Notes: generated by a model not told the origin, from the letters alone. Shown: positions 37,930 to 51,527, counted from the first letter of the stretch. The stretch is DNA of 64,000 nt from an uncultured Candidatus Saccharibacteria bacterium (GCA_963543945.1 CAUUCN010000001.1:1118-65117); one strand, 5' to 3'. Numbers and translations are program-made.

Positions 37930-38005
37930 GATTAATTCTCGAGTGACTTTTGTAATGCTATGTAATTTTGGATTCTTAAGGATTTTGACTTAGAAAGGTG
38001 GGGAG

Positions 38006-38347
38006 ATGATTAAAAATTACTTATCACATGTCTGCCGAATTTTGGATGACAATGATGAAATACTAACGACATACCAACCAGAAGAAGGGGCGATTGAAAT
38101 TGAGGCAAAAAGTATGCTACGTGAGCATATTGGAGTGGTGCCAATTTTCCAAATTACGTTCTCGAAGATGGTGGGTCTGCCAAGTTATGAAGAGGGGGTG
38201 TTCTATATCGTAAAACCAACTGTGGTGCGGGCGGTCAAGGATCTCGGTCGAACGATTGATGATCTATTTCTGCCAGTGTTTTCAGTTACGGATGACGAGG
38301 GAGCGCTGATTGGTTTTAGAGGGCTAGCTTCTGCACGTGACTTATAA
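38006..38347 (+). CDS. Family E1 hypothetical protein
   Basis: GVFYIVKPTVVRAVKDLGRTIDDLFLPVFSVTDDEGALIGFRGLA aligns with the high-GC gene 47935..48267. Confidence 0.65.
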   Translation: MIKNYLSHVCRILDDNDEILTTYQPEEGAIEIEAKSMLREHIGVVPIFQITFSKMVGLPSYEEGVFYIVKPTVVRAVKDLGRTIDDLFLPVFSVTDDEGALIGFRGLASARDL

Positions 38348-38481
38348 GACATTCACTTTCGGGTTCGGATTTTTCCGGGCCTTTTTTAATGAAAAAATCC
38401 CCGGCGAACCGAGGATTTTTGAGTGATGAAAGAGGATGAGAAAGCGAAGATTAGAAAATTCGATCTTAGGGAATCTGAGAT

Positions 38482-39573
38482 TTAGATTTCTTTCTGATTG
38501 AGGACTTTACCGTATTTGATACGTTTATTTTTCGATAAATCGCATCGATTAAAGAGTTCTATAAGTTTTTCCCGATTAATATTGGTGGCGCCATATTTAA
38601 GCAGGGCAACGCCAATTCGAAGTTTATCATCTGGCGTACAAAATAGGTTGCCATGTTCATATTTTTCAGCCAGTATATCAATCTGACCACCAGACACTAG
38701 GTAATTCTTGGTAAGGAATTTCTCAAAATCGCAACCATATCTAGTGGCAACGTAAACTTGCTGAATATTAAGTAACTCAAGAAACTGATTGATAGTGATC
38801 GTGGGTGGCAACTTTTTGAGATTAGGCTCTATTGATATGAAATCTTGGAAGTTCATATTAACCCAAATTGGTCGATAATCGTCAAGATTGATGCCGAAGA
38901 TGGTCCAATCGAGTGGGTCAGCGGCCATGATACTCTCGTGTATTTTTGGATTGCAGTGGTCTTTAATCCAGGCGGCAATGAGACCGAGTGAAAGATTCTG
39001 CTGATAGAAAAAATAGAGTAGACAGTAAACATTAGCAGGTTTTGGAGATTCCTTGACGAGGAGCTGGTTGGCCATCACGAAAATCGTCGTGAGGTTGACT
39101 CCGAGGACGCGCATTTCGGCGCATTGAACTTCGAGATCATGCTTAGTTTCGATCTTATAGCAGTTCATGGCGATAGTGTCGATATCGACACCGCGTTGCT
39201 GAAATTTTTTGAGGTTTCTCAGGATAAAATCACGACCTTTGATTTGAATTAACTGGTACATTAATTCATAAGAATCGACATGGACCTTAGAGGCTTTGAC
39301 TTTGTCGTAGTGACGCCAGATGTAGCTGGGGCTAAGTAGTTCCCTAACCTCGCTGGAGTTGGCGCCGGCCGCTAAAAGTTCAGACCAGATGGTTTGTGAA
39401 ATTCTATAAACACTGCCACGCTCTGCTTTAGTGCGGGCAAGTGTCATGGCGGCGTAGAGCGCATCATGTAGGTCAAGATAGCGCTTGACATAGGCGGGAG
39501 TACGACAGACTCTGGGCAGTTCCTCGAAACTAGATTCCGCGATTTGAAACATAATTTGGAATTTTTGACTCAT
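38482..39573 (-). CDS. Family B3 hypothetical protein (divergent)
   Basis: Start ATG 39573 (AAAGGGGA Shine-Dalgarno); shares the C-terminal layout with B1/B2 (IWVNMNFQDFISIEP..., NYLVSGGQIDILA, LINREKL). Confidence 0.65.
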   Translation of the reverse strand: MSQKFQIMFQIAESSFEELPRVCRTPAYVKRYLDLHDALYAAMTLARTKAERGSVYRISQTIWSELLAAGANSSEVRELLSPSYIWRHYDKVKASKVHVDSYELMYQLIQIKGRDFILRNLKKFQQRGVDIDTIAMNCYKIETKHDLEVQCAEMRVLGVNLTTIFVMANQLLVKESPKPANVYCLLYFFYQQNLSLGLIAAWIKDHCNPKIHESIMAADPLDWTIFGINLDDYRPIWVNMNFQDFISIEPNLKKLPPTITINQFLELLNIQQVYVATRYGCDFEKFLTKNYLVSGGQIDILAEKYEHGNLFCTPDDKLRIGVALLKYGATNINREKLIELFNRCDLSKNKRIKYGKVLNQKEI

Positions 39574-39627
39574 GTTTTCCCCTTTCATTTTGTAAAAGAA
39601 CGTGTAATAGATACAAAGTTTCCATTT

Positions 39628-39656
39628 ATTATCACATGAGATGCTTATTTTGTCAA
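39628..39656 (-). promoter_or_regulatory. Sigma70-type promoter TTGACA-17-GATAAT for B3
   Basis: Exact 17-nt spacer. Confidence 0.6.
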
Positions 39657-39735
39657 AATAAGCGTAGATGGAGAGCATAAAAGGTGGCTATGATTTTTTG
39701 TGAAGAGGCGGGGTTTATGAAGCATAAGCTTATAG

Positions 39736-39741
39736 TATAAT
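39736..39741 (+). promoter_or_regulatory. -10 box TATAAT 6 nt before ATG 39748 (leaderless-type start)
   Basis: tatagTATAATggaagaATG. Confidence 0.5.
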
Positions 39742-39747
39742 GGAAGA

Positions 39748-41613
39748 ATGAATCATAATTTGGCGCCAAGTGGTTTGGAGAAAGCAGGAGAGCAGGAGGT
39801 AAACGATAGTTACCTGAAGTTGATGCAGGCGCTGAAAGATGTGGAGTTCTTGGGGGAGAAAAAGACGAAAGTCGAAGAAAAACAGGCCGAAAGCGTGAGT
39901 GATTTTAACCTCGAGGGGATTTTGGGTCGCAAGGAAAAATTGCTATCAGATATAGAGAAGGAACATAGTCAAGAATATTTGATCCGAGAGAGGCATGAGA
40001 TTATTTGTGACCGTGACCATATCGAAAACCAGCGAGTGGATGTGGTGGAGAATCTGGAAAATCAGACTTTGGAATACCGCTTTAAGTTACGTGAACCTTT
40101 GACGGAAATTTCAGAATTGGGGCAGAAATTACGTACCGAATCACGCGAAAAAGACGGCGTGGCGGAGCTTAAAAGTGGTACTTCGGTGCGCCTCGGAGAA
40201 ATTATTTATCATGATTTAGAATCGAAGCGTGAATTTCGTTTGTGTGATGCTCTGGTATTTGAGAAAAATGGTGTGAAAGTTTCTTTGGCGGATGCGACTG
40301 CACGTGAACTAGGTGACGGAGTGATTTCTAGGAAACGTAATACTAGTAATCTGGTACGAGCAGCGATCGGTTTGGTGCAAATGGAAGTGCCAAAAGCGAT
40401 GGATGACATGGCGGCGCAGCAAATAATGGATGAAATTTTTAGGCAGGACCTCGGGGTAGAAGATGCTCTAGATGAAGTTTCGGAAGCGGCGGAGCGCGAT
40501 TATAAAATAGCGAGACTGAAGTGGCAGTATAAATTGGATGAACTTAGCCCGGATCAGGTCGATCGCGCGGAAAAATTGACACGCAAAGAGGTTTTTCCGG
40601 GATATTCGACCTTTATAGAATCTGGGAAACATAATGAGTATTTAGCGAAATACGGTGAGGATGTGCGCGCGGTCCATATGTTGAATTCGATGAGTGTGGA
40701 CTCGGTTTATCGGGTGTTAACTACGGGCTTGATGAGTACGACCGAGCGGTTCAGTCGGGGAGTGGTAAAAAATGGAATTTCCTCGGTACTGGATATTGAT
40801 TCTGGGGGTGCGGACAATGTGTTCACTAGGATTATGAATGCGGAGCAGCGCGGTAAAATTCAGAATCATGCGGTGGTATTGAAGCCGGAAATTTTTGACC
40901 GTACCGATTGGTATGCTTATAATGTGGACTCTTATGGTTCGACTAATGAAGCGCACTTTGCCGGGAGGTTGGTACCAGAGGAGATTTTTCAGCGCACCAT
41001 GGGCGATTTAAAACACTATTCGGCAGACAATGAGCAAATGTTTCGTACGGGTATCGGGGTGGATTATATTGAAGCGATAGAAGTGGATGAGCTGGATCGT
41101 GATGAATTACTTGAGGGGCTTCATGAAAAGGGACTCTTCGAGGTAAATGGGCGACCGATTGAGGAAGTGATTGTGGCGCGGGAATTTGACGAGGATGATG
41201 ACGATTGGGGAGACTTTGGAGCTAATTTTGAAGGGGCGGGTGAGTCGGTGGAAGATTTTTTGGCACAGAATTTAAGAAAGCAGGAACGCATGGAGGCGAT
41301 TTATAATGGCGAAGTAAAAGAGGTGAGCCTGGGAGAACTGACGGCGCTCGCGGAATCTTCGGAGGATTTTAATGATATCTTTGTTTCCCTGGCGGAGGCG
41401 ATTATGAGTCAGGGTGGAGGTGAAAAATTGAGAGTGGATCTCGAAACGCATTTAGGTCAGGTGCTGGGGTTGGAAGATTTGGCAAATTTAGCTTCGGGGA
41501 AGTTGCCAAAAGATTTTACGCCGAATGATTTAGGGGTATTCTTGTTTGCGAAAAATCAATTGGGAGTGGATTTTGGCAAAATGTATATGGAAGCGAGAGG
41601 GGTGAGTATATGA
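39748..41613 (+). CDS. Large hypothetical protein (621 aa); central segment with a weak ADP-ribosyltransferase-like pattern
   Basis: Coiled-coil-rich N-terminus; AVHMLNSMSVDSVYRVLTTGLMSTTE...DNVFTRI...NEQMFRTGIGVDYIEAIEV; acidic C-terminal region. The function call is speculative. Confidence 0.7.
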   Translation: MNHNLAPSGLEKAGEQEVNDSYLKLMQALKDVEFLGEKKTKVEEKQAESVSDFNLEGILGRKEKLLSDIEKEHSQEYLIRERHEIICDRDHIENQRVDVVENLENQTLEYRFKLREPLTEISELGQKLRTESREKDGVAELKSGTSVRLGEIIYHDLESKREFRLCDALVFEKNGVKVSLADATARELGDGVISRKRNTSNLVRAAIGLVQMEVPKAMDDMAAQQIMDEIFRQDLGVEDALDEVSEAAERDYKIARLKWQYKLDELSPDQVDRAEKLTRKEVFPGYSTFIESGKHNEYLAKYGEDVRAVHMLNSMSVDSVYRVLTTGLMSTTERFSRGVVKNGISSVLDIDSGGADNVFTRIMNAEQRGKIQNHAVVLKPEIFDRTDWYAYNVDSYGSTNEAHFAGRLVPEEIFQRTMGDLKHYSADNEQMFRTGIGVDYIEAIEVDELDRDELLEGLHEKGLFEVNGRPIEEVIVAREFDEDDDDWGDFGANFEGAGESVEDFLAQNLRKQERMEAIYNGEVKEVSLGELTALAESSEDFNDIFVSLAEAIMSQGGGEKLRVDLETHLGQVLGLEDLANLASGKLPKDFTPNDLGVFLFAKNQLGVDFGKMYMEARGVSI

Positions 41614-42002
41614 GAAGCTTTAGAAATATTATGAAAAATGGGCGTGAACGCGTGGAAAAATTGCCAGGGGCGGTTTATCTGGTGGAATGCGAGACTGATA
41701 AAACAGTGTTAGTAGCGATGCGACTAGAGGTAGTGCGGCGATTTTCTGAGGGGGAGGAATTTATCTCTGTGAAATGGTTTGACACGGTGCGTGAACGAGT
41801 GATGCGCGCGAAAATGGTTTGGCGCGTGGGTGAATGTCTGGCTTTTGAAAGACTGACAGACAATGGGGGTGGAAAATATTATTTCACGCCGTTGACGCTA
41901 GAGAAATATTATAGTGAAGTGAAAGATTTGTTGGTTTCGGGTGAGGATTTTACAAGTGAAGCGGAAATGATTGAGGCGTTCTTGAAGGCCGAGGCAAAAT
42001 AG
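41610..42002 (+). CDS. Hypothetical protein, translationally coupled (ATGA overlap)
   Basis: 130-aa ORF overlapping the stop of 39748..41613 by 4 nt. Confidence 0.65.
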   Translation: MRSFRNIMKNGRERVEKLPGAVYLVECETDKTVLVAMRLEVVRRFSEGEEFISVKWFDTVRERVMRAKMVWRVGECLAFERLTDNGGGKYYFTPLTLEKYYSEVKDLLVSGEDFTSEAEMIEAFLKAEAK

Positions 42003-42029
42003 GGGCGGGATTTGGGTTTTGAAAAAAAT

Positions 42030-42053
42030 AAACTCTCGAAAAATTCGAGAGTT
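42030..42053. terminator. Bidirectional hairpin terminator
   Basis: AAACTCTCGA/TCGAGAGTTT perfect 10-bp arms. Confidence 0.7.
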
Positions 42054-42072
42054 TAGTGAGAAAACAGTAAAT

Positions 42073-43104
42073 CTAGGCGCCAAGCCGATTAAGATTGGTG
42101 GTTTCAATGCGTGGAATGGAAGTAGATTCTGGTGAAATATCCGTGGTGTCAATTTCGGTTTCAGCAAATTGATCGCAAAGTTTAACCAGATATCGACCAC
42201 GCTTCAGGGTGGTGACCCACTTTTCTGGAATACTTTTGAGTCCATAATGAATACCAGCGAGCGAACCAGTGAGAGCGCCGACCGTATCGGTGTCATCGCC
42301 GAGATTAACCGCAGTAAGTACGGCATCTTGGAAGTTGTCAGTGGTCAGAAACGACCAAAGCGCTGCTTCTAGCGTATCGACTACATAGGCGCGAGAAGAG
42401 ATGAACCCCTTGGGATAGCGATAAATCTGATTTTTCAGAATTCGACTATATAGACTACGCTCTTCCGAATCAAACATACTGTAATCGTCTAGCTGGGTTT
42501 TGCGATAAGCTTCCTTGGGATTATCACCGCCTAATAAGTGGCAAACGAAATTAGTGTAAATCAGACAACCCAGCACGCTAATTGGGTGAGCGTGGGTGAG
42601 GGATGAAATATTTTTCACTAATTCGTAACGTTTTTCACCGGTGATTTGGTTGTTGTGACAAACAAAAGCTACTGGCAAGATGCGCATGAGTGATCCATTA
42701 CCGTTATTGGCGTAATGGCTCATACCACATTTGACGGGGTGTCCGCCAGCGAGATAAGTCTCAATCGCGCGTTTGCAGGTGCCGCCAATATCAAAAGTGA
42801 GCTTAGTAGCGGTGAATTCGTCTTGCAAATACCACTTGACAAAATTCTCCATAATGTCGTGATAATGGAAGCGTTTTTGGTCAATCAATGACTGCATCAG
42901 GCAGATGGTCATAGATGTATCGTCAGACCAAGTACCGGCAGGTTGATGATGGGTACCGACAGATAACATTTCGGTGACCGGCATGAGTTCTAGAAAATTT
43001 CGATTCAAAAACTCAATGGGCACCCCTAATGCGTCGCCAATAGCTAAGCCGATAAGGCCAGAACGAACTGCTTGCTTTATATCCTTTTTCTCTAAATGTA
43101 CCAT
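42073..43104 (-). CDS. ADP-ribosylglycohydrolase family protein
   Basis: GLAIGDALGVPIEF, WSDDTSMT and GDDTDTVGALTGSLAG motifs; AGGAGGAG Shine-Dalgarno. Confidence 0.85.
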   Translation of the reverse strand: MVHLEKKDIKQAVRSGLIGLAIGDALGVPIEFLNRNFLELMPVTEMLSVGTHHQPAGTWSDDTSMTICLMQSLIDQKRFHYHDIMENFVKWYLQDEFTATKLTFDIGGTCKRAIETYLAGGHPVKCGMSHYANNGNGSLMRILPVAFVCHNNQITGEKRYELVKNISSLTHAHPISVLGCLIYTNFVCHLLGGDNPKEAYRKTQLDDYSMFDSEERSLYSRILKNQIYRYPKGFISSRAYVVDTLEAALWSFLTTDNFQDAVLTAVNLGDDTDTVGALTGSLAGIHYGLKSIPEKWVTTLKRGRYLVKLCDQFAETEIDTTDISPESTSIPRIETTNLNRLGA

Positions 43105-43206
43105 AGTATCTCCTCCTATCGATTGGGTGATGATGCGGGATTATTTGTGAAATGGGACCAATTTTGGGTCAGATTTTTCACGATTTTTCCGCACCGAGAT
43201 TTATAT

Positions 43207-43235
43207 ATTATAACAATTTTAGAGTGTTTTGTCAA
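43207..43235 (-). promoter_or_regulatory. Sigma70-type promoter TTGACA-17-TATAAT for the glycohydrolase gene
   Basis: Minus-strand read: TTGACAaaacactctaaaattgtTATAAT. Confidence 0.65.
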
Positions 43236-43240
43236 TGAAG

Positions 43241-43274
43241 AAAAAATCCCCGAAGATAGGCTCCGGGGATTTTA
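43241..43274. terminator. Hairpin terminator, copy 1 of a duplicated 37-nt unit
   Basis: aaaaaatccccgaagataggctccggggattttaatg; near-identical copy at 43406..43440. Confidence 0.65.
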
Positions 43275-43345
43275 ATGAAGAGCTTCGACGTGTGTATTTT
43301 CTTGAATGAATAATCGTTTTAGTATTTTTGGTGTATAATTTTAAT

Positions 43346-43397
43346 ATCGAAGTCTCTGCACGGGGTGTAATGCTCCTACCGCAGGGGCTTCCTTTTT
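43346..43397 (+). ncRNA. Candidate small RNA, copy 1 (~52 nt: own -10 box, long hairpin, U-tail)
   Basis: TATAAT at 43334-43339; GAAGTCTCTGC...GCAGGGGCTTC 11-bp stem plus T5; paralog at 46546..46598 with compensatory stem changes. Confidence 0.5.
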
Positions 43398-43405
43398 ATA
43401 TACGA

Positions 43406-43440
43406 TAAAAAATCCCCGAAGATAAGCTTCGGGGATTTTA
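43406..43440. terminator. Hairpin terminator, copy 2 of the duplicated unit
   Basis: ATCCCCGAAG-ataag-CTTCGGGGAT, 10-bp stem; also serves the convergent HD gene. Confidence 0.7.
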
Positions 43441-43457
43441 ATGTGAGGAATTTAATT

Positions 43458-44045
43458 TTAGAGATTTATTGTGATAATACCTCCTAGCTCATCTATAAGA
43501 GTCGCAAGGTGATGCTTGAGTTCTATCGGCACCGGTTTGTTTCTGATGAGACTAAAAACGGTGCGATAATACCAGAGAATATCTTGTTTAGAAGCATTGA
43601 AGCGCTGCCAAATTTCATCGCCAAACTTATCGTAATCTTTTAGAATGTCAGTCAGGTTATGTATTTTATCGGCGGTTGCGACAATGTAGGCCTCAATGTA
43701 GTAGGAATTGCCGAGGCGCTTCAGGTAACTTTCTTTACGTTCTTTCCAGGGAAGTTTGGGCTGACCGGCCGTTTTAGGTTCCGAAACATCTTTGACGATG
43801 TCGGTAATTTCATCACCAAAATCGCGACGCATGTCAGCCTCAGAATAGACAGCTGGATTGACATCTTCAAGTATATCGTGTAGGATCCCAGCGACAATTG
43901 TTGCTTCGTCGTTGGTATATTGACTAATAATCATGCCGACGGCGACAGGGTGGGAAATATATGGAAAATCGGTTCCCTTGCGGTTTTGACCTTGATGGGC
44001 CTTGGCGGCAATTTTAAGTGCGAGATTAATTTTGTCAGTAAACAT
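43458..44045 (-). CDS. RelA/SpoT-type HD-domain hydrolase (small alarmone hydrolase-like)
   Basis: Start ATG 44045; AHQGQNRKGTDFPYISHPVAVGMI...AGILHDILEDV is the (p)ppGpp-hydrolase HD signature; no synthetase domain. Confidence 0.8.
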   Translation of the reverse strand: MFTDKINLALKIAAKAHQGQNRKGTDFPYISHPVAVGMIISQYTNDEATIVAGILHDILEDVNPAVYSEADMRRDFGDEITDIVKDVSEPKTAGQPKLPWKERKESYLKRLGNSYYIEAYIVATADKIHNLTDILKDYDKFGDEIWQRFNASKQDILWYYRTVFSLIRNKPVPIELKHHLATLIDELGGIITINL

Positions 44046-44170
44046 AGATTCACCTAACCTTTCGTAATGTGTGCGGGTGACTGTTTGGTTAAAATTCCTC
44101 AAATTTTAAGGTGCAATAAATTCACCTCTCTCTCGAGAGGTGAAAGTTGTGTAGCAAATTTTTTCGTAAT

Positions 44171-44791
44171 CTAAATATCTTTTACCTCGGGTTCACGATA
44201 CCAGATGATGCCAGATTTTTCAGAGACAGGGATTTCTAAACTTTGCTCTTTAAAATCCTTATAGGTCGAAACGAACCATTTAGTAGGTGATCCAGTGAAA
44301 GTAATAGAAGTGGCAGTAAGCCATGCTAAAAGACCGAACTCATCTGCGTCGGGCATTACACCGATAAAGCGCGTCTTATCACATATGTCTTGGTATGACG
44401 GCCGGTCGGCCTCTTGGATTTTTTGCCAACCGTTGTATTCGAGGATTTCACCCCAGTGTTTGGCATCGAAGCGATGTTCTCCGGGTTTGCGCGGCCCTGG
44501 TTTAGGTAATTTAGGTGAACTACCGCAGTGTTTTTTCATCATCCAGGCCACATAACTAGTACTACGCCGAATGACGAAGCCATTAGAATCAGTAATTAGG
44601 GTGTAAAAATTACCGTCGGATTCCGGCCATTTGGCAAAATCGGGATCAGCGTAAGGATATTCCTCGGCGCCAGTCTCCATGATGAAACGATAGATGTGAC
44701 GATAGATTATGCGAATAATCCGTTTAGGCTGCCAAGCAGCGCAAGATTCTCTTGCGAAAAAATTTGCTACTTTAATCTTAAATGTACTCAT
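44171..44791 (-). CDS. Hypothetical protein
   Basis: 206-aa ORF with GAAGGAGGGG Shine-Dalgarno; no confident family. Confidence 0.6.
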   Translation of the reverse strand: MSTFKIKVANFFARESCAAWQPKRIIRIIYRHIYRFIMETGAEEYPYADPDFAKWPESDGNFYTLITDSNGFVIRRSTSYVAWMMKKHCGSSPKLPKPGPRKPGEHRFDAKHWGEILEYNGWQKIQEADRPSYQDICDKTRFIGVMPDADEFGLLAWLTATSITFTGSPTKWFVSTYKDFKEQSLEIPVSEKSGIIWYREPEVKDI

Positions 44792-44835
44792 GATTCCCCT
44801 CCTTCATGCTGTGTGGGAAAATACCCAATATTTAT

Positions 44836-44864
44836 ATTATACAATGAAGAGTGGGGCGTGTCAA
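44836..44864 (-). promoter_or_regulatory. Sigma70-type promoter TTGACA-17-TATAAT
   Basis: Minus-strand read: TTGACAcgccccactcttcattgTATAAT. Confidence 0.65.
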
Positions 44865-44946
44865 TTTTTGACCCCTGAGTTAACACAGTATATAAATATT
44901 TCGATTAAAATTTAAAGATTCGTAAATATGGTATATTGTAATTAAT

Positions 44947-45603
44947 ATGAATTTAAGGGAAGCTAAAACCTATATCTATATTGATGTTAGTAACATCCGT
45001 CACGCCTGCCTTTGGAGCTGCGGTTTTGTTCTTGATTTTATTAAATTATATAACTATCTTAAAGAGAAATATCCGAATGTTCAGGAAATTCGTTATTATG
45101 AAGGGATATCTTCTAGTGATAGTAAGAAAATGGAACATTTTCGATTTTTGAGTGAAAAAGTTGGATATAAGATTTGCTCACTTTCTAGAAAAAGCTATAT
45201 TGAACCACCAAAGTACGAAAAATATAGATGCGCGAATTGCGGGTCTCTAAATAATATAAAAGTACTTTCGAAAAATGTGAAATTAAAATCGAATATTGAT
45301 GTTTATTTGACATCGGATCTGCTGGAGTGTGTTGCAAGATCAAAGGACCCAATTAATATCATAATCCTTTCTTGTGATGGAGATTATGCCGAAGCAATTA
45401 AGGCAACTCTTCGATTGAGCCCCGATTCTTGTGTAACGGTTTTAGCTACACCAGTAACAGAAATAAATAATTGCCTATCAGTTAGATTAAAACAACTTAG
45501 TCGTGAGCTTGATCGAAGTAATTATAAGTTGTCAAATATAAATAATATTAGAGATTATGTTGCTCAGTCTTTTGAGGGCGGTAAGAATAAATTGAAAAAA
45601 TAA
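44947..45603 (+). CDS. NYN/LabA-like domain protein with an inserted zinc-ribbon-like CxxC pair
   Basis: IYIDVSNIRHA ... IIILSCDGDYAEAIK (NYN acidic motifs); YRCANCGS; TATATT-9 nt-ATG start. Confidence 0.65.
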   Translation: MNLREAKTYIYIDVSNIRHACLWSCGFVLDFIKLYNYLKEKYPNVQEIRYYEGISSSDSKKMEHFRFLSEKVGYKICSLSRKSYIEPPKYEKYRCANCGSLNNIKVLSKNVKLKSNIDVYLTSDLLECVARSKDPINIIILSCDGDYAEAIKATLRLSPDSCVTVLATPVTEINNCLSVRLKQLSRELDRSNYKLSNINNIRDYVAQSFEGGKNKLKK

Positions 45604-45814
45604 TTAAGGATATTTTTAGAATCGAGCAACCCGCCATTTCTGGCGGGTTCTCATGAAGATAGCACCGAAGTGGTATCTCCGACGTTGGAGTTTCTTACTC
45701 CGATGTCTTTATTCTAGCATATATTGAAGAAAAACTCAATCCGAGTTCTAGTTGCATTTTTATAGTGTTATACTCGACGTAAAGCGGAGTAGAGGCTTAT
45801 GATATAATAAAAAT

Positions 45815-46354
45815 ATGGCTCATACTTTGTGTGCTAATAAACATAGTATGTGGAACGGCGATGGAAAAGTTTGCGTCGATGCTTATTCTGTTGAACTTAT
45901 TAAAAAAATATCAGAAGAAAACCCTGATAAGAAATTTGGCGATAAAGATAACGACTATTCCCTATTGGTTGATATTTATGATTCTTGCCCAGAAAAAGAA
46001 CCGGATATATGGCGATGCACGAAATGTCTAAGTCTAGTGATTTTCTTTTCTGATAATGAATATGGAATAGAAAAATGCTATGGTTATGTAGTTGATGAAA
46101 CGGAAAATTTGCCAGATAAAACGTTATATTCAAAATGGGAGGAGTATTTTGTTGAAAATAACGACGCCTTCGAAGAGCATCATGAGAATCTAAAAAATCA
46201 AGGTCTAACGCCATACGAATCATTTGAGAGATTCCATAAGGAATCAGATAAGTTAAACTTCGCATATGTAAGTGACGATAAGCTGAAAATTGTTGTAACA
46301 GATAATAGTTATAATCCAATTCGCCTTTATAAATTAAAATGGAAGACAGAATAA
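45815..46354 (+). CDS. Hypothetical Cys/His-containing protein
   Basis: 179-aa ORF; TATAAT-6 nt-ATG; C..H..C and RCTKC motifs. Confidence 0.6.
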   Translation: MAHTLCANKHSMWNGDGKVCVDAYSVELIKKISEENPDKKFGDKDNDYSLLVDIYDSCPEKEPDIWRCTKCLSLVIFFSDNEYGIEKCYGYVVDETENLPDKTLYSKWEEYFVENNDAFEEHHENLKNQGLTPYESFERFHKESDKLNFAYVSDDKLKIVVTDNSYNPIRLYKLKWKTE

Positions 46355-46477
46355 AGCGTTGATGTTGGAGTTGCAGTCAGTATGGGGGAAGATGCATTGA
46401 TGAATATGCTTATAAGGTCGCCAATAATCTTTGATATTGATTTTTAGATATCGGTAGTGTATTATTGAATTACAGCG

Positions 46478-46511
46478 CCTTGGTCTGGATTCGTTCCCGC
46501 CAAGGTTTTTT
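46478..46511 (+). terminator. Intrinsic terminator
   Basis: CCTTGG...CCAAGG stem followed by TTTTTT. Confidence 0.6.
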
Positions 46512-46545
46512 GATTTAAGATAATTTTATGTGATATAGTGAAAAT

Positions 46546-46598
46546 ATCGAAGTTCTTGCACGGCGCCGAAGGTACCTACCGCAGGAGCTTCTTTTTTT
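46546..46598 (+). ncRNA. Candidate small RNA, copy 2
   Basis: TGaTATAGT at 46531-46539; GAAGTTCTTGC...GCAGGAGCTTC stem plus T7. Conserved AATATCGAAGT, TGCACGG and CCTACCGCAGG blocks; the inner 11 nt differ from copy 1. Confidence 0.5.
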
Positions 46599-46759
46599 GC
46601 ATAAAATAACGATCGTGATACATATAAAAACACAAAGTCAGTTCTCTAGATAGTTTTGGTTAACCGTTTCTGTATATTTTCAACAATTCATTCGCGAGAT
46701 AGCCGAAAGCGTGTGAGTGGTATAATCATAAATAGGATACTAGAAAAGGAATAACTTTT

Positions 46760-47221
46760 ATGGAAAACGCTCCACGAATTAATGGTGAAAAAACGATGAA
46801 TATGGCTACACAACCCAATAGCCCAGATCGAACTGCTAATAAAACCTCAATCGTGAACCGACCATATATCAGAAAAGAAACCATCAATACCGTCGTTGAT
46901 CGTGATGGAAATGATAGCATGAGGATGGAAGAAATGCCAGCTGGAAAATCAGAAGAGCAAATTGAGAGTGAAAGAGTTGGTCGTGTTAAAATTAATGACG
47001 AAATGCAGGCTAGAATGAAGGTGTACTGGGCTGATAAACGAGCAAATGAGCAAAAACAACGTGAAGAACAAGAACGAGTTCGAAAAGAAAAGGCGATGAC
47101 TGAAGCCGAGCATCAAAGGATTCTGCAAGAACAAAGAGAAAAAGTTCAAAATGCATATCATCGAAATACTGAAAATGAACTTAATGAAGAGCAAGATAAT
47201 GAAATGGAAATGGAGATGTAG
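46760..47221 (+). CDS. Highly charged coiled-coil-like hypothetical protein
   Basis: 153-aa ORF; AAAAGGAA Shine-Dalgarno; E/K/R/Q-rich. Confidence 0.6.
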   Translation: MENAPRINGEKTMNMATQPNSPDRTANKTSIVNRPYIRKETINTVVDRDGNDSMRMEEMPAGKSEEQIESERVGRVKINDEMQARMKVYWADKRANEQKQREEQERVRKEKAMTEAEHQRILQEQREKVQNAYHRNTENELNEEQDNEMEMEM

Positions 47222-47224
47222 AAT

Positions 47225-47551
47225 ATGAAAACATTTCGATTGTCTTCAAATGAAATCAAAATTTTAACGGATATGAAGGGTGGCTGTATTGCATCAGATA
47301 GAATTACTGTGGATGGGCAAAAAGTTGGCTACGCTTATCGAGAAGATCCAGATAAGAATTTTTCAAATGATAGTGGATGGAGATTTCTTGCTGGGGATGA
47401 AAGCGAGGAATATCTGAATAATCCTAACAATTTTGACGTATTTGAAATAAGCACTATCTGTAATTACGATCCGAATATTCTAGATATTTTAGACGGGAAA
47501 ATTGGCGAGTCTTATATTAGAGATAGTAATACATTTAAATTAGATTTTTAA
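47225..47551 (+). CDS. DUF2185 / Imm33-like immunity-type protein
   Basis: NDSGWRFLAGDESEEYLNNPNNFDVFEISTICNYDPNILDIL matches my recollection of the DUF2185 signature (DSGW.f..G.E). Confidence 0.6.
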   Translation: MKTFRLSSNEIKILTDMKGGCIASDRITVDGQKVGYAYREDPDKNFSNDSGWRFLAGDESEEYLNNPNNFDVFEISTICNYDPNILDILDGKIGESYIRDSNTFKLDF

Positions 47552-47588
47552 CCTCAGTTCCTAAATATGGTATAATTTGAACTTTTTA

Positions 47589-47759
47589 ATGGAAACAACA
47601 CTGGCGGTATATTGTATTATAGTTGTTTTTTACAAAATAAGCATGTATTATATTGACACTTTTAAGCATATGTTCTATAATATGAGTTATACGCTTGAGA
47701 AAGGCCTAGCCGATCTGAAAGCTTATATGAAAGAACAATTCAGAAATGAAAAGTTCTAG
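47589..47759 (+). CDS. Possible small hydrophobic protein (56 aa); doubtful
   Basis: TATAAT 12 nt upstream; one predicted TM segment (TLAVYCIIVVFYKISMYY). It overlaps the promoter of the next unit, so it may be non-coding. Confidence 0.25.
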   Translation: METTLAVYCIIVVFYKISMYYIDTFKHMFYNMSYTLEKGLADLKAYMKEQFRNEKF

Positions 47760-47934
47760 TACCTTCAAAACGTAGGAATTAACACCAACTTTGATCAAAG
47801 TGGGATACTTATGCAGGAAGCTTTCGTGCGTAGCTACCCCACTTTGCGAAAAGAGAGCTTTGGCTGGGGTTGTTCCGGGATGGTCCCGAACAAAATTTGA
47901 TTTTGCTAGGGCAAAAGCCCGGAGAGGAGTCCAT
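47692..47934 (+). promoter_or_regulatory. Long structured 5' leader of the high-GC gene
   Basis: -10 box TATAAT at ~47675-47680; hairpins GTTCCGGG...CCCGAAC and GGGC-aaaa-GCCC next to the Shine-Dalgarno. The 47864-47929 segment loosely resembles ykkC-type conserved blocks. Confidence 0.35.
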
Positions 47935-48267
47935 ATGAATATAATTAATTTGACGCCCCACACTGTGAACATCTGCACTGAGGATGGAGATATCGAGTGC
48001 TCGTTCAAATCTGAAGGTGTCGCTCGCGCAAGCCAGGTGGCAGTACCTTTCGGTGACGTCAATGGAATCGAGTTGGTCGAGATGCGTTTCGGCCCTACCG
48101 TTGATCTTCCTGACCCTGAGGCAGGTACCGTACTTATTGTATCTGCGATCACCGCAAGTGCCGCTAAGGCGGAAGGTCGTTCTACTGATGACCTGGTGCT
48201 TACAGCGGATACTGTCCGTGACAAGGATGGCCGTATCGTCGGCTGCAGGCGCTTCGCCCGCGTATAA
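47935..48267 (+). CDS. Family E2 hypothetical protein (high-GC copy)
   Basis: Start ATG 47935 (GGAGAGGAG Shine-Dalgarno); MNIINLTPHTV...TVLIVSAITASAAKAEGRSTDDLVLTADTVRDKDGRIVGCRRFA aligns with 38006..38347. Confidence 0.7.
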   Translation: MNIINLTPHTVNICTEDGDIECSFKSEGVARASQVAVPFGDVNGIELVEMRFGPTVDLPDPEAGTVLIVSAITASAAKAEGRSTDDLVLTADTVRDKDGRIVGCRRFARV

Positions 48268-48298
48268 GGGACCATCCCCCCTACCTACGTTATTTTAT

Positions 48299-48332
48299 AA
48301 CCCCGGTCTCTATGGCCGGGGTTTCCATTTTT
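48299..48332 (+). terminator. Intrinsic terminator
   Basis: AACCCCGG/CCGGGGTT stem followed by a T-rich tract. Confidence 0.7.
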
Positions 48333-48345
48333 ATCTTAAAGCATA

Positions 48346-48354
48346 TGCTATAAT
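48346..48354 (+). promoter_or_regulatory. Extended -10 promoter TGcTATAAT, 7 nt before ATG 48362 (leaderless-type)
   Basis: aTGcTATAATatgtaatATG. Confidence 0.55.
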
Positions 48355-48361
48355 ATGTAAT

Positions 48362-49747
48362 ATGAAAGACCCCAATGTGGTAAAAAATGAATCCGAAAAA
48401 GACTCTGATTATGATGCCGATTGGGGTGCTGGTTGGGGTAAAGTAGCGGCGTTAGCTAACAATCCAAATCTTAGTGAAGCATCATCTAAGGAGAATCCAG
48501 AAGATTCCGATGAATATGAGGAATCTGATGACTATGATAACGAAGACGACTACGACGACTATGACGATTACGATAGTGAGGATGATGGTTATGATCGTGA
48601 TGAGGATGCTTATGGTGATTATGATGACGGCTATGATAACTATGATGGCGAAGACGATGATTATGATCATGGCGAGGATGCGTATGGTGATTATGACGAC
48701 GATTATGATGACTATGACGATGATGATGATTACAATAGCTACTATAATGGCGACAACGAGCGCCTAGAGGTAAAAGAAGACGAATTAAAAATTCGAGAAA
48801 TACCTCTACCGGAAAATATCTTAAAAAGATATGATTTTATCGAGAAGTTACCTAGTGGTATTGCTATAATGGGTGGTGTGGCAAGGAGTGTAGCACGCGA
48901 GATTTTGACTGGTGAAAAAGAGCCAATCAGGGATATTGATCTTGTGGAAATTACTGATAATGAAGACGAAAGCACAGTCGACCCAGAGCTTCTCGATGAA
49001 TTAGCACAAACTTATATGCCAGATGATTATGCATTTGGCCATGGAATCGGACTAGACACCTTAGAAGATTATTTCTCTACACGCGACTTCACTATTAATG
49101 AATGCCTTATTAAGGACGGTAAGCTTCTCGTGAGTGAGTTAGCGGAAAATGATTTTAAGGAAAATATTATCAGACCAACTTATTATGAAGCCCCATATGA
49201 CGGAGATAAACTGTCGGGACGGCTTTTCTTGAAAGCGATACTGATGCAGACCGTGATATCGCAAATTTCTGAATCCATACCGTTACTTGAGGATGTTCAT
49301 GTGAATTTTCAATATATTGGCGATTTTGATACGGCAGTATTTCTTAATAAGGCGATGAGTCGCGGGGTAGAAACAGCGGTAAAATTTACAGAGAATCTTG
49401 CTGAATGGGGTGTAGTATACCCAGAATTTGCTGGTAGGCCTATGGCGCTTGCGAAAGATTTACTTACTAATGCATACAATTTTAAATTTAGACCATCTAC
49501 AGATGAAAGATTTCTAGAACCAGAAGAAGGTCGCGACATGAGCGGATTTTTTGTGCCAAAAGCTATGCAAGAATACCATTCATCCGATCCAGCAATAGCC
49601 CGAGCTATAGATGAGTATGATAGTGGCCCAGATTACAGTAATGATGATAATGATGGTGATAATAACGGTGAGCCAGTTTCGGGATATTATACACAGAAAG
49701 ATTACGATGAGATTAATTCGAGTGTGGATAGTCGTGACATAGAATAA
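48362..49747 (+). CDS. Class-II (CCA-adding / poly(A) polymerase-type) nucleotidyltransferase-like protein with N-terminal Asp/Tyr-rich tract
   Basis: Start ATG 48362; the longer ORF-track ORF reads through the upstream gene. GGVARSVAREILTGEKEPIRDIDL and EDYFSTRDFTINECL head-domain motifs; aa 46-132 are almost only D/E/Y/G. Confidence 0.65.
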   Translation: MKDPNVVKNESEKDSDYDADWGAGWGKVAALANNPNLSEASSKENPEDSDEYEESDDYDNEDDYDDYDDYDSEDDGYDRDEDAYGDYDDGYDNYDGEDDDYDHGEDAYGDYDDDYDDYDDDDDYNSYYNGDNERLEVKEDELKIREIPLPENILKRYDFIEKLPSGIAIMGGVARSVAREILTGEKEPIRDIDLVEITDNEDESTVDPELLDELAQTYMPDDYAFGHGIGLDTLEDYFSTRDFTINECLIKDGKLLVSELAENDFKENIIRPTYYEAPYDGDKLSGRLFLKAILMQTVISQISESIPLLEDVHVNFQYIGDFDTAVFLNKAMSRGVETAVKFTENLAEWGVVYPEFAGRPMALAKDLLTNAYNFKFRPSTDERFLEPEEGRDMSGFFVPKAMQEYHSSDPAIARAIDEYDSGPDYSNDDNDGDNNGEPVSGYYTQKDYDEINSSVDSRDIE

Positions 49748-49950
49748 AATCTAAAATTATAGAACTTGTTCTAGTATAATATGTACAAGTAGATCTCCTA
49801 TTTACGTTTGTTGTTATTCTTAAGTATGGATCTACCTATTTTTATTGACAAGATTCCGCCAATATTTGTTACAAAGGTCCTGGATCTTAACGTTGCTTAT
49901 GAAATAAGCCCCGCCGAAGCGAGAGCTTTAATCAAAGAGCATAGGCTGTT

Positions 49951-50808
49951 TTACAAACTGCTTATTTTTTCGATCATCTCTTCTATAGAACGGCGGCTAA
50001 AATTGCGGAACTTGGTTAAATCAGCATTCCTTGCCTCCTCAATTGTATTGATTCCGGCGTGTCTCAGACAGCTATAAGTGCGAGTAGATAAGTTGAGCAC
50101 TTCAATTGGACCGTCGACAGGTGCTGTCCTTCCGTATTTTTGTTCATAATACTCGAGAATTATCTTTGCAACAGATAACCCTCCCTCTGTTGCCAATAAA
50201 CGCGACTGAAGCTCTAATCTGCTCACCATTAGCAATCCCAATTGTCGTTTTATTCTCGGACGCCTAAGTTTTATTTTTGCTTTTGCCAGAATTTGCTTAA
50301 TGTATCCTCTGGTAGAGCAATATTTCTGAGCAATCTCTTCAAGAGACATACGCTCGCAGCCTAATCCGTAGTGAAGCTTTAAAATTGCGTTTTCCTTCTC
50401 AAATAAACTTGAGCAAAGGATACTATAAAGGCAATTTTTCTGATCATCCGTCATTGGATTTTCCCAAAAATGGTTGATTAATTCGGGGCGATTATTAATG
50501 GCAAAATCGACCAGAAAGTACTCTTCGTTGGGAATCTTCGTGCGCAAATCAAACTTGTTGATTAATTCGGAGCGATTATCATTGGCAAAAATATCAACCA
50601 AAAAATATTCCTCGTTGGAAAGCTTCGTGCGTAAACCATGCTTTTCCAATACTTCTTTGATTTCCTTAGCTTTTTTGGGACCGATTCCACGGATACCAGT
50701 GAGATTATCATAGCATGAACAAAGTGCAAGAGATTCGAGCGAATCAAACAGTGTAGTTGCAATAATTTTCTCGATTGACGGGTTACCTAAAAGATTAAGA
50801 TTCATCAT
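49951..50808 (-). CDS. Family A6: HhH plus internal 28-aa duplication plus sigma70 region-4-like plus alpha-CTD-like protein
   Basis: LTGIRGIGPKKAKEIKEVL; ENAILKLHYGLGCERMSLEEIAQKYCSTRGYIKQILAKAKIKLRR; IEVLNLSTRTYSCLRHAGINTIEEARN...FRNFSRRSIEEMIEKI. Confidence 0.75.
   Translation of the reverse strand: MMNLNLLGNPSIEKIIATTLFDSLESLALCSCYDNLTGIRGIGPKKAKEIKEVLEKHGLRTKLSNEEYFLVDIFANDNRSELINKFDLRTKIPNEEYFLVDFAINNRPELINHFWENPMTDDQKNCLYSILCSSLFEKENAILKLHYGLGCERMSLEEIAQKYCSTRGYIKQILAKAKIKLRRPRIKRQLGLLMVSRLELQSRLLATEGGLSVAKIILEYYEQKYGRTAPVDGPIEVLNLSTRTYSCLRHAGINTIEEARNADLTKFRNFSRRSIEEMIEKISSL
50473..50643. repeat. In-frame tandem duplication (84 + 87 nt) inside A6
   Basis: gttgattaattcgg(g/a)gcgattat... 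repeated with period 84 nt; encodes LRTK(L/I).NEEYFLVD...N(D)NR.ELIN.F twice. Confidence 0.85.
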
Positions 50809-50872
50809 GGTTTTTCCTCCTTTAAAAGGTGACCAAATTTTTTAACTACTTTAGATTTAACCTAACTTTTTA

Positions 50873-50901
50873 ATTACAACATAAACGCTTTAAAATGTCA
50901 A
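50873..50901 (-). promoter_or_regulatory. Sigma70-type promoter TTGACA-17-TGTAAT for A6
   Basis: Exact 17-nt spacer; the upstream ~75 nt are homologous to 52861..52937. Confidence 0.6.
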
Positions 50902-50971
50902 TATGTCCGTAATAACTCAGAACCTTTGCAACATAACACGGTAAGATTATTGCCATCAAAAAAGTAGATTC
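50895..50971. repeat. Promoter-upstream module, copy 1 (copy 2 at 52861..52937)
   Basis: atgtcaat(a/c)tgtccgt.a....cag(a/g)acctttgcaa.a.aa..gg.aa.a..ttgcca..aaaaa.tag.ta shared by both copies. Confidence 0.7.
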
Positions 50972-51123
50972 TATACTTGAATTAACATCACTTAATAAAA
51001 GGAGAATCTATCTATAAATATTATACCAGAACAAATCCTGAATTTTTAAAACCCCTGCGGGTAAATGTGAAAAGCCTCCTAGTATGCTTTGCATATAGTC
51101 GTCTGATTCGTCGAAATAAAAAA

Positions 51124-51220
51124 GTATCGCTATGCTTCTTATTTTAATTTTTAAAACCTAAAATTATAGAACAAGTTCTAAATTTTAAATTTTAAAAATA
51201 AAAATAGAGTTCTTCGAACT
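51124..51220. repeat. ~97-nt AT-rich intergenic repeat, copy 1 (copy 2 at 56059..56155; 28-nt partial copy at 49746..49773)
   Basis: cttattttaatttttaaaac.taaaattatagaa.aa.ttctaaattttaa....ttaaaaataaaaatagagttc; contains palindrome TAGAAC-nn-GTTCTA and a terminator hairpin. Confidence 0.8.
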
Positions 51221-51320: not shown

Positions 51321-51395
<75 letters not shown>

Positions 51396-51442
51396 ATATA
51401 AAAATTCCCACATCAATTTGACTGGGGATTTTAATGAACTTA

Positions 51443-51527
51443 TGGTGCTGGAGGTAGGACTCGAACCTACGAAGGTGTAACCCGAGAGATTTACAGTCTC
51501 TTGTCATTGCCGCTAGACTACTCCAGC
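51443..51527 (-). tRNA. trnY: tRNA-Tyr (anticodon GTA), class II with long variable arm
   Basis: Hand fold collinear with bacterial tRNA-Tyr: anticodon loop CTGTAAA, variable arm CGGGTTACACCTTCG, T-loop TTCGAGT, encoded CCA. Confidence 0.9.

Follow-up and report, generated by a model that had tools for sequence, protein, structure and literature searches.

A predicted DarT-like ADP-ribosyltransferase, its coupled partner and a convergent ADP-ribosylglycohydrolase in a genus-conserved block of Candidatus Nanosynbacter, beside a mosaic variable island

Do the conflict- and repair-type genes that lie together on an oral Candidatus Nanosynbacter (Saccharibacteria/TM7) chromosome form one functional system, and what would such a system do? 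Within the window, i.e. the whole stretch of 64,000 nucleotides that was analysed, the original prediction had read seven genes at 39748–49747 as a possible orphan-immunity or antidote arsenal. The ORF positions were as predicted, and six of the seven gene calls held up. The region nevertheless consists of two units and not of one cluster, a genus-conserved block that extends to 44883 and a mosaic variable island, which are laid out as follows.

39748–41613, + strand: 621-aa multidomain protein, unannotated (ORF)
40555–41202, + strand: predicted DarT-like ADP-ribosyltransferase (ART) domain, aa 270–485 (domain model and Foldseek)
41610–42002, + strand: 130-aa partner of the ART (ORF, ATGA overlap)
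42029–42055, − strand: terminator-like hairpin between the convergent partner and ADP-ribosylglycohydrolase genes (site scan)
42073–43104, − strand: ADP-ribosylglycohydrolase (ARH; DraG/Tri1/ARH1-like), monocistronic (Pfam)
43458–44045/44102, − strand: stand-alone RelA/SpoT-type HD hydrolase of the small alarmone hydrolase type (HD_4)
44171–44791, − strand: 206-aa conserved protein; its gene ends the conserved block and has a separate consensus promoter
44884–51200: mosaic variable island, between the conserved block and tRNA-Thr/Tyr (blastn against sister species)
51321–51527, − strand: tRNA-Thr(GGT) and tRNA-Tyr(GTA), flanking the island

The blastn comparison with sister species places the island breakpoints at 44883 and 51049–51217. 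A consensus scan assigns promoter-like and terminator-like sites of their own to the ARH gene (consensus promoter at 43207–43235), the HD_4 gene and the 206-aa gene. That the whole 10 kb is one orphan-immunity or antidote arsenal, with the ARH, the HD_4 hydrolase, NYN, Imm33 and the nucleotidyltransferase (NTase) acting together, is highly improbable, even though there is a genuine enrichment of conflict-type families here and at the same spot in sister species (Imm33, SUKH-1, Fic, CdiA_C, a second ARH), three other lineages have an Imm33 pair adjoining the ART module, and a published proposal describes ARG-centred systems that include alarmone-type HD phosphatases (PMC9503650). By the scan, the ARH, HD_4 and 206-aa genes are separate transcription units, and in several sister species insertions lie between the ARH gene and the HD_4 gene. 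The cassettes of the mosaic right half occur in some species only; among them, NYN, Imm33 and the 472-aa gene are interchangeable and missing from most sister species, and the NTase lacks profile support. PADLOC (PADLOC-DB 2.0), a search that the original prediction had recommended, found no known anti-phage defence system; its NYN match was weak (6.6e-5) and its Cas2e match spurious. The island at 44.9–51.2 kb and the left half do not work together as one arsenal, and a single arsenal of seven genes is not supported.

The 621-aa protein comprises a disordered segment (residues 1–62), a conserved N-domain that is β-rich and helical with a fold without known match (residues ~63–270), the DarT-like ART domain (residues ~270–485) and a helical C-domain (residues ~500–621). 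The full-length AF2 model has a pLDDT of 86, and the AlphaFold model of the ART domain (residues 270–485) reaches a pLDDT of 95 and a pTM of 0.91. A Foldseek search of the PDB with this domain returned E. coli DarT1 (8baq) as the best match (E 4.4e-7, TM 0.58/0.60), DarT without exception at ranks 2–7, and ARTs for nearly all of the remaining top 50 (CteC, TreX, pertussis, cholera, Scabin, ScARP, Tpt1). The top six matches are unchanged when the full-length model is used. Matches in BFVD include iridovirus 422L and baculovirus ORF32, which are candidate members only of the ORF28 family of baculo-, irido- and ascoviruses, whose proteins have been described as DarT-related (PMC9503650). According to the models, the 621-aa protein carries the split β-sheet ART fold and is closest to DarT. 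Searches of Pfam, NCBIfam, PHROG and PADLOC gave no match for the protein, and profile searches of the PDB returned nothing. At the sequence level, it falls outside every ART family.

The family alignment contains five invariant residues (G353, R385, D387, G397 and E429) and the near-invariant H310; H310 and E429 retain this degree of conservation over 117 diverse family members. In the domain model, core strands 1, 2 and 5 bear H310, F359 (like the other two, near-invariant or invariant) and E429 (within an NEQMF motif), respectively. By strand order only, and not by superposition, this arrangement resembles the ART pattern of H (or R) on strand 1, an aromatic residue or S on strand 2 and a catalytic E, D or Q on strand 5. 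The original prediction had suspected an H-Y-E type ART in this segment. The DarT-like fold does belong to the H-Y-E side of the superfamily, but the tyrosine that had been chosen (SVYRVL) is not conserved, whereas H310 and E429 are.

DarT is the DNA-base ADP-ribosyltransferase of the DarTG toxin–antitoxin systems, DarT1 being guanine-specific and DarT2 thymidine-specific. The likeness of the 621-aa family to DarT includes the seven DarT structures that head the Foldseek list, a conserved His and a conserved Glu placed by strand order on strands 1 and 5, and an invariant or near-invariant Arg-containing motif (ER..RG, residues 333–338) after the first helix of the ART domain, the place that the special catalytic R51 occupies in DarT (PMC9967889). 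As in DarTG, the gene adjoins an enzyme of a type able to remove ADP-ribose. By contrast with DarT, the ART domain is embedded in a 621-aa protein together with the ~200-aa N-domain and the helical C-domain, and the Pfam DarT model (PF14487) does not significantly match the protein; among its relatives, this model matches 1 of 48 at 7.8e-4 and 2 of 36 at 0.054 or weaker. The neighbours also differ from those in DarTG, being a small protein predicted to be non-enzymatic and a DraG-type ARH, with a macrodomain (DarG) or NADAR antitoxin absent. To our knowledge, the erasers of DarT known so far are macrodomains or NADAR, and not ARHs.

In the mechanism that we propose, the DarT-like domain would transfer ADP-ribose from NAD+ onto a macromolecular target, which may be a protein or a nucleic acid. 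ART-fold NADases and Tpt1 exist as well, and the domain could instead perform another chemistry (NAD+ glycohydrolase or RNA 2'-phosphotransferase-like), with the ARH processing free ADP-ribose derivatives. Such a role would be in line with the second-strand aromatic, which is Phe (F359) and not Tyr, and with the presence of Tpt1, at a low rank, in the Foldseek list. We consider it very unlikely, given that DarT transferases are by far the best structural matches, that the conservation of the ~200-aa N-domain with the ART core suggests recognition of a macromolecular substrate, and that ARG/ARH-domain proteins are argued to prefer macromolecular ADPr adducts (PMC9503650).

The coupling of the 621-aa and 130-aa genes was predicted correctly. 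The TGA stop of the first overlaps the ATG of the second (ATGA), an arrangement of translational coupling, and conservation of the pair extends from phages to Saccharibacteria, with a partner after the ART gene at 73 of 74 viral loci, all 27 Nanosynbacter loci and 42 of 52 other loci. A word search detects homologues of the 130-aa protein in Nanosynbacter only, and hhalign aligns it with the small ORFs that follow phage MuF-ART genes (probability 94.9%, E 4e-8). No Pfam domain was found in it. From its gene position and by analogy, the protein is predicted to be a non-enzymatic binding inhibitor or immunity protein, or a chaperone, of the ART; as a dedicated partner it would most likely bind and block the ART, providing structural immunity in the manner of an antitoxin.

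The ART family comprises 957 clusters at 50% identity and is represented by no Pfam model. In its phage members the ART forms the C-terminus of MuF-kinase head proteins, and the genes follow the order terminase, portal, MuF-kinase-ART, partner, scaffold, major head; plasmid genes are also among the closest relatives of the 621-aa protein. The module is evolutionarily related to the C-terminal effector domains of these phage proteins. MuF polymorphic toxins and polyvalent proteins of phages are head-packaged, injected effectors fused to MuF (PMC5576092, PMC5512222), and the viral relatives resemble them in their terminase-portal-MuF order and in the fusion of a kinase-like domain and the ART to MuF. 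The succession of ART gene and small ORF is found here too, the ORF being ATGA-coupled and homologous to those of the phages. The ART differs from the Alt/VIP2, N4-ART and Tox-ART-HYD2 (ART-PolyVal) types of those two studies, and the N-terminal, SPP1 gp7-like MuF domain (Pfam) and the kinase part are both absent from the 621-aa protein.

The kinship with phage MuF fusions, together with the missing MuF and kinase parts, is what a decaying prophage remnant without present function would show. This reading is essentially refuted by the selection data. The dN/dS ratios are close to 0.1 (0.08–0.14 for the ART, 0.06–0.15 for the partner and 0.05–0.11 for the ARH), the 621-aa protein is intact at full length in hundreds of metagenomic copies, the three genes are syntenic throughout the genus in loci from 16 species-representative genomes, and the module neighbours that were scanned gave no phage-structural match. 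The Nanosynbacter module is a chromosomal, genus-wide version under purifying selection. Housekeeping genes with conserved synteny across the lineage were named by the original prediction as evidence against it; such synteny was found for the left block, where it coincides with strong purifying selection. Polymorphic toxin–immunity pairs rarely show this combination with genus-wide synteny, and a stably maintained module is therefore favoured over a fast-turnover toxin–immunity pair.

The ARH, predicted from the outset, matches Pfam ADP_ribosyl_GH (PF03747) at 5e-75 (253 bits, gathering score 26), and its translation displays the di-metal-site motifs SDDT and DDTDT. Its PDB matches include Lmo0067 (6e-71). 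ARHs undo the work of ARTs in Tre1-Tri1, a T6SS ART effector with its ADP-ribosylarginine hydrolase immunity protein, and in DraT-DraG. The present ARH aligns with Tri1 (6dre, 8e-45) and DraG, but scores far under both equivalog cut-offs (204 versus 490 bits for Tri1, NF041672; 157 versus 337 bits for DraG, TIGR02662). Tri1 is aligned from its residue 72 onwards, so that the ARH lacks an equivalent of the Tri1 N-terminal segment. A convergent ARH gene lies within 400 nt of the module at all 26 Nanosynbacter loci and recurs at 11 of 43 other cellular loci, in at least six further 70%-identity clusters and always in the same orientation; none was found next to 72 phage ART genes, and a Streptomyces plasmid homologue of the ART has an ARH gene ~5 kb away. 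Because the gene is missing beside 32 of the 43 non-Nanosynbacter homologues, the ARH is not an obligatory part. It is predicted to be the eraser of the modification made by the ART: convergent and separately transcribed, it would most likely strip the ADP-ribose and so provide enzymatic immunity.

With moderate confidence, we read the left half as a three-part ADP-ribosylation module in which the ART is the effector, the 130-aa protein an inhibitor that binds it and the ARH the enzyme that erases its modification. A parallel organisation is known from a Bacteroides stercoris prophage, whose MuF-fused ART toxin Bxa has two immunity proteins: the small protein Bsi binds and blocks it, and the hydrolase BAH reverses its modification (PMC11699363). 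The analogy would cover the ART, the small adjacent ORF and the ADP-ribosylhydrolase, and the phage relatives of the 621-aa protein are likewise MuF fusions followed by a small ORF. These relatives differ in having no hydrolase (0/72), and the 621-aa protein differs from Bxa in being without MuF, chromosomal, genus-conserved and under purifying selection. The three-part module may target molecules of the cell that encodes it, serving as a switch for abortive infection or growth control in the manner of DarTG, or it may be delivered into the host bacterium or competing cells. Neither a secretion signal nor a trafficking domain was identified.

The ART and ARH could also form a DraT/DraG-like writer–eraser pair acting on an endogenous protein or nucleic acid, with the 130-aa protein as a regulatory or specificity subunit. 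The genus-wide synteny and low dN/dS of all three genes suit this possibility, as do the strong promoter-like site of the ARH gene, which would allow independent control, the score of the ARH against the DraG model, and one other lineage in which the ART gene overlaps the stop of a complete RelA/SpoT gene, a hint at a stress-signalling context. We regard it as rather unlikely, since the fold is nearest to the toxin DarT and not to DraT, the closest relatives (head-packaged MuF fusions of phages and plasmid genes) have the typical context of conflict effectors, and most homologous loci are without an ARH.

The next gene of the conserved block is the HD_4 gene, which is conserved across the genus and flanked by terminators on both sides. 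The HD_4 match (1.5e-19) spans residues 28–175 of 214, the protein lacks a synthetase, TGS or ACT domain, and its nearest solved relatives are the single-domain small alarmone hydrolases 7qoe (8e-39) and 7qoc. A stand-alone alarmone hydrolase had been anticipated, and this part stands; no evidence ties the HD_4 protein to a toxic alarmone synthetase, the kind of enzyme that such hydrolases neutralise according to the original prediction, and no alarmone synthetase gene was found in the region. Its link to the ADP-ribosylation module is uncertain. The 206-aa gene that closes the block has a dN/dS of 0.31–0.43.

The variable island and the sequence beyond it contain the following genes.

44947–45603, + strand: NYN (Pfam, 37 bits versus a cut-off of 24)
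45815–46354: 179-aa ORF
46760–47221: 153-aa toxin-gene remnant
47225–47551, + strand: Imm33 (Pfam 2e-32, 111 bits)
47935–48267: 110-aa phrog_30542-like gene
48329–49747: acidic 472-aa protein
49951–50808: 285-aa HhH/sigma-r4/alpha-CTD protein
53717–54277: Nudix gene

The NYN and Imm33 assignments of the original prediction agree with the Pfam matches, and the Nudix gene exists, albeit outside 39748–49747. The cassettes of the island are shared with sister species piecemeal at 94–99% identity, and SUKH-1, Fic and CdiA_C cassettes and a second ARH occur at the same spots in those species. Conflict-type cassettes accumulate here as had been proposed, and the island, with tRNA genes beside it, is a hot spot of recombination in which cassettes of the toxin–immunity type gather. 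Immunity islands of polymorphic toxins (Imm33, SUKH-1; PMC3482391) are comparable, with Imm33 beside a decayed partner gene in a variable island and SUKH-1, Fic and CdiA_C in sister genomes; the difference is that the island of this stretch encodes no intact full-length toxin or secretion system. The statement that no matching toxin partner is evident needs a slight correction in the case of Imm33. The 153-aa ORF lies 4 nt upstream of it and is what is left of a 583-aa protein, which is encoded ahead of Imm33 in related genomes and has no recognised toxin domain.

The gene predicted as an acidic nucleotidyltransferase did not find profile support. The 472/587-aa protein has no match in Pfam, NCBIfam, PHROG or the PDB, whether searched as a single sequence or as a profile, and an invariant GG...DxD motif (GG...DID) is its sole NTase-type trait. 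The gene probably starts at 48329, giving 472 aa, since over its first 115 codons the longer frame overlaps the conserved 110-aa gene, which is read in another frame.

The window is chromosomal DNA of Candidatus Nanosynbacter (Saccharibacteria/TM7), and a one-genome-per-species scan with the 621-aa protein returned 16 loci at 87–93% identity, all labelled as Saccharibacteria or Nanosynbacter MAGs. The ORF positions of the original prediction were correct on an ORF check. The genes at the centre of the analysis are:

39748–41613, + strand: 621-aa ORF, whose TGA stop overlaps the ATG of the 130-aa ORF (ATGA at 41610–41613)
41610–42002, + strand: 130-aa partner ORF
42073–43104, − strand: ADP-ribosylglycohydrolase (ARH)
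43458–44045, − strand: small-alarmone-hydrolase-type gene (HD_4)
44171–44791, − strand: 206-aa gene

Several family assignments made from the sequence alone were borne out by Pfam, namely those of the ADP-ribosylglycohydrolase (ADP_ribosyl_GH, 5e-75), the alarmone hydrolase (HD_4, 1.5e-19, with the single-domain small alarmone hydrolases 7qoe and 7qoc as closest structures), the NYN protein (37 bits against a cut-off of 24), Imm33 (2e-32) and a nearby Nudix hydrolase (53717–54277). PADLOC, suggested in the original prediction, recognised none of its defence systems in the window. The remaining genes are ordinary for the group, and include those for arginine deiminase, ornithine carbamoyltransferase, a DcuC carrier, DinB, MgsA and DUF285 repeats. 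There are four tRNAs, the fourth of which (56261–56333, − strand) has an Rfam match of 52.7 bits and no ARAGORN call, and a 1075-aa ORF (59321–62548, − strand) that lacks a Pfam domain.

The ADP-ribosyltransferase (ART) fold of the 621-aa protein is revealed by structure prediction only. The protein has no match in Pfam (DarT model included), NCBIfam, PHROGs, PADLOC or, by phmmer or profile, the PDB, and PDB profile searches with the ART family found nothing. The Pfam DarT model matches relatives weakly (1 of 48 at 7.8e-4; 2 of 36 at 0.054 or weaker), and at the level of sequence the family is not DarT. A word-based search returned only relatives of more than 90% identity, and a diverse alignment required an exhaustive representative search, which gave 957 clusters (50% identity) at E ≤ 1e-3 with a common region of approximately residues 65–480. 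In a 117-member alignment, G353, R385, D387, G397 and E429 are invariant, and H310, E333, R334, R337, S345, D349, D356, F359, R361, Y391 and N428 nearly so. The full-length AlphaFold model has a pLDDT of 86, and its top six PDB matches are six DarT structures. Residues 270–485 modelled alone (pLDDT 95, pTM 0.91) match best E. coli DarT1 with NAD+ (8baq; E 4.4e-7, probability 1.0, TM 0.58/0.60, 217 columns), with DarT throughout at ranks 2–7 and ADP-ribosyltransferases making up almost all the rest of the top 50 (CteC, TreX, pertussis and cholera toxins, LT, Scabin, ScARP, Tpt1). The predicted structure thus confirms the fold suspected in the original prediction. Matches to viral structures include iridovirus 422L and baculovirus ORF32 proteins; ORF28-family proteins of baculo-, asco- and iridoviruses have been described as DarT-related (PMC9503650), which does not imply that these 422L and ORF32 matches belong to the ORF28 family.

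The model places H310, F359 and E429 (motif NEQMF) on the first, second and fifth core strands, respectively, and we infer from strand order, without superposition, that they occupy the H-Y-E triad positions. The His and Glu motifs originally proposed were right, and the Tyr chosen then (SVYRVL) is not conserved. After the first helix, at the place of the special catalytic Arg51 of DarT (PMC9967889), stands the ER..RG motif, an equivalence again drawn by strand order. An N-terminal domain (aa 63–270, nt 39934–40557) always occurs together with the core; it has a strongly conserved D.D.IE.Q.ID motif and near-invariant K113, Y252, K253 and W259, matches no recognisable fold, and may be the substrate-recognition part.

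The partner gene links the module to phages. A tblastn search of INPHARED (deposited phage genomes) gave no match to the ART protein; in IMG/VR viral contigs, the core domain has 82 confirmed matches (82 stretches, of which 80 loci were kept). The viral core forms the C-terminal ~400 aa of ~1140-aa proteins that begin with Phage_Mu_F or Phage_min_cap2 followed by a kinase-like domain, in the gene order terminase, portal, MuF-fusion, small ORF, scaffold, major head. The small ORFs 3' of the viral ART gene (108–140 aa, mostly with a 4-nt overlap) form one family. A word search with the 130-aa partner gave no distant homologues, and the link to the phage ORFs comes only from hhalign of the two alignments, which identifies them as homologous (probability 94.9%, E 4e-8, 95 columns). 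Across all fetched loci with enough downstream sequence, a partner lies 3' of the ART gene in 73 of 74 viral, 27 of 27 Nanosynbacter-type and 42 of 52 other cellular loci. Streptomyces and Mycolicibacterium plasmids carry distant ART copies beside a kinase-like giant protein, with a small ORF after them. The kinase-like domain of the viral loci (L019–L097; motifs GGTGEMH..., HVTDWLLGNFDSHGGNF and DKEQAFRY), which lies between the MuF and ART parts, has no Pfam match; it recurs on the actinobacterial plasmids, there in the separate giant protein encoded upstream of the ART gene. Phage MuF and polyvalent proteins are believed to be packaged in the head and to enter the cell by injection (PMC5512222, PMC9503650). 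In loci L138, L171/L172 and L180, two ART-core genes stand in tandem around one partner gene.

ADP-ribosylglycohydrolase genes are rare. A convergent ARH within 400 nt of the partner is present in 26 of 26 Nanosynbacter-type, 11 of 43 other cellular and 0 of 72 phage loci; the 11 represent at least six further 70%-identity clusters, and the orientation is always the same. Because the genes are rare and the adjacency is repeated in one orientation, chance is an unlikely explanation, and the ARH is not obligatory beside the ART–partner pair. The best matches of the enzyme are Listeria Lmo0067 (6e-71) and the T6SS immunity hydrolase Tri1 (8e-45), and it scores well under the Tri1 and DraG equivalog cut-offs.

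The ARH gene has a perfect consensus promoter (43207–43235) and a terminator-like hairpin (42029–42055). HD_4 and the 206-aa gene each have a separate terminator-like hairpin, the latter also a promoter-like site, and sister species carry insertions between ARH and HD_4. On the strength of these intervening sites and insertions an operon of the three genes was rejected, and HD_4 is, on account of its own hairpin and the insertions, treated as a neighbour rather than a proven part of the module. A link between HD_4 and the ART is nevertheless kept open by one lineage in which a 616-aa ART homologue overlaps the stop codon of a full RelA/SpoT gene (HD_4 + RelA_SpoT + TGS; locus L100, 2005–5330, and locus L101, 618–3943). 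A second hint is the proposal of ARG-centred systems with alarmone-type HD phosphatases (PMC9503650). The L100/L101 lineage lacks the small partner and has two Nudix genes close by. The interval 43237–43407 is a second, small variable spot, where sister species hold a CdiA_C-like toxin-domain gene (locus L001), methyltransferase genes (L009) or a 304-aa gene (L014). Upstream of the 621-aa gene (39728–39748), a TATAAT box ends 8 nt 5' of the ATG, no Shine-Dalgarno-like stretch was noted in the gap and the consensus scan listed no full promoter; this sequence suggests a leaderless or near-leaderless transcript.

The original prediction had named housekeeping homologues with lineage-wide conserved synteny as evidence against itself, and gene order from 32142 to 44883 is kept in all Nanosynbacter loci of sufficient length. 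In pairwise comparisons with ten species, dN/dS is 0.08–0.14 for the ART, 0.06–0.15 for the partner and 0.05–0.11 for the ARH. As judged from these sequence comparisons, the module is both functional and stably inherited. Selection and synteny together rule out a decaying prophage remnant, and the conserved gene order and low dN/dS likewise rule out a fast-evolving polymorphic toxin pair for the module. Genus-wide purifying selection in so small a genome makes the module likely to be important for the epibiotic lifestyle or for phage resistance. Just upstream lie three paralogous ORFs of 277, 407 and 398 aa (33666–34499, 35812–37035 and 38482–39678, all on the − strand), members of a Saccharibacteria-specific family without a Pfam domain that has a further copy near the ART homologue in locus L168. 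The window also holds a paralogue pair of a 137-aa type (31369–31932 and 37516–37929) and a 113/110-aa pair (38006–38347 and 47935–48267) matching phrog_30542/21731, of unknown function. In another lineage (L129–L147), both types are again found next to ART homologues, so the conserved neighbourhood is possibly wider than three genes.

The fold, conserved residues, gene coupling, synteny and selection are best accounted for by a three-part model, in which the putative activities would be those of a DarT-like ART, a tightly coupled small protein that binds and inhibits it, and a hydrolase that erases its mark. Bxa, a prophage MuF-ART toxin, sets a precedent for this logic: the small protein Bsi blocks it, and the hydrolase BAH reverses its action (PMC11699363). 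Such a module could serve Nanosynbacter as a self-directed DarTG-like switch, as an effector aimed at the host bacterium or as a regulator of the DraT/DraG kind. A more specific version, which we regard as improbable, is that Nanosynbacter domesticated, from phage head-injected effectors, an as yet unnamed DarT-like clade that ADP-ribosylates nucleic-acid bases, with a DraG-type ADP-ribosylglycohydrolase as eraser instead of a macrodomain or NADAR; it would then serve either as a switch for abortive infection or as a weapon against the actinobacterial host of this ultra-small epibiont, and ARH enzymes would gain nucleic-acid-base adducts as a new class of substrate.

The individual parts of the three-part module are of known kinds. 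New are the ART family, which is large, without a Pfam model and 'hypothetical' wherever the source names it, its dedicated family of partners, the combination of a DarT-like fold and an ARH, and the module's fixation within a Saccharibacteria genus. The searchable literature gave no description of any of them, no paper on Lmo0067 and none on the ART family in Nanosynbacter. The analysis provides a function-level handle on a family (957 clusters) so far known only as 'hypothetical protein', one that joins phage MuF-kinase head proteins, likely injected with DNA, to actinobacterial plasmids and reduced oral Saccharibacteria genomes. Tests of the unusual fold–eraser pairing could extend what is known of the chemistry of the two enzyme families.

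The single seven-gene cluster originally proposed (39748–49747) does not hold, as its right half is distinct from the conserved block. Comparison with sister species by blastn gives sharp breakpoints at 44883 and at 51049–51217, just before tRNA-Thr/Tyr, and the cassettes of the intervening island are common to sister species piecemeal: NYN with one species, the 179-aa ORF and the 153-aa + Imm33 pair with others at 94–99%, the 110-aa + 472-aa pair with others at 98%. No 18-mer copies of tRNA-derived att-like direct repeats were found around the island. At the same positions, sister genomes carry Fic, DUF2268, a second ARH, SUKH-1, a CdiA_C-like domain and methyltransferases, and this hot spot illustrates toxin–immunity cassette exchange among tiny genomes. 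The 153-aa ORF, 4 nt upstream of Imm33, matches two pieces (aa 389–449 and 549–583) of the 583-aa protein encoded ahead of Imm33 in related genomes, so Imm33 here adjoins a decayed partner gene. The nucleotidyltransferase assignment of the acidic 472-aa protein found no support in Pfam, NCBIfam, PHROGs, PDB phmmer, homologue search, alignment or PDB profile search; its homologues are Saccharibacteria 'hypothetical proteins' without a Pfam domain, and an invariant GG...DID motif is all that remains. Its start is probably 48329, since the upstream 115 codons overlap the conserved 110-aa gene. Two small proteins with an RNA polymerase alpha C-terminal domain are encoded outside rpoA (33070–33570 and 49951–50808, both on the − strand); the second, of 285 aa, was common to none of the sister species compared by blastn, is unique to the island of this genome, and also carries HhH and sigma-70 region 4.
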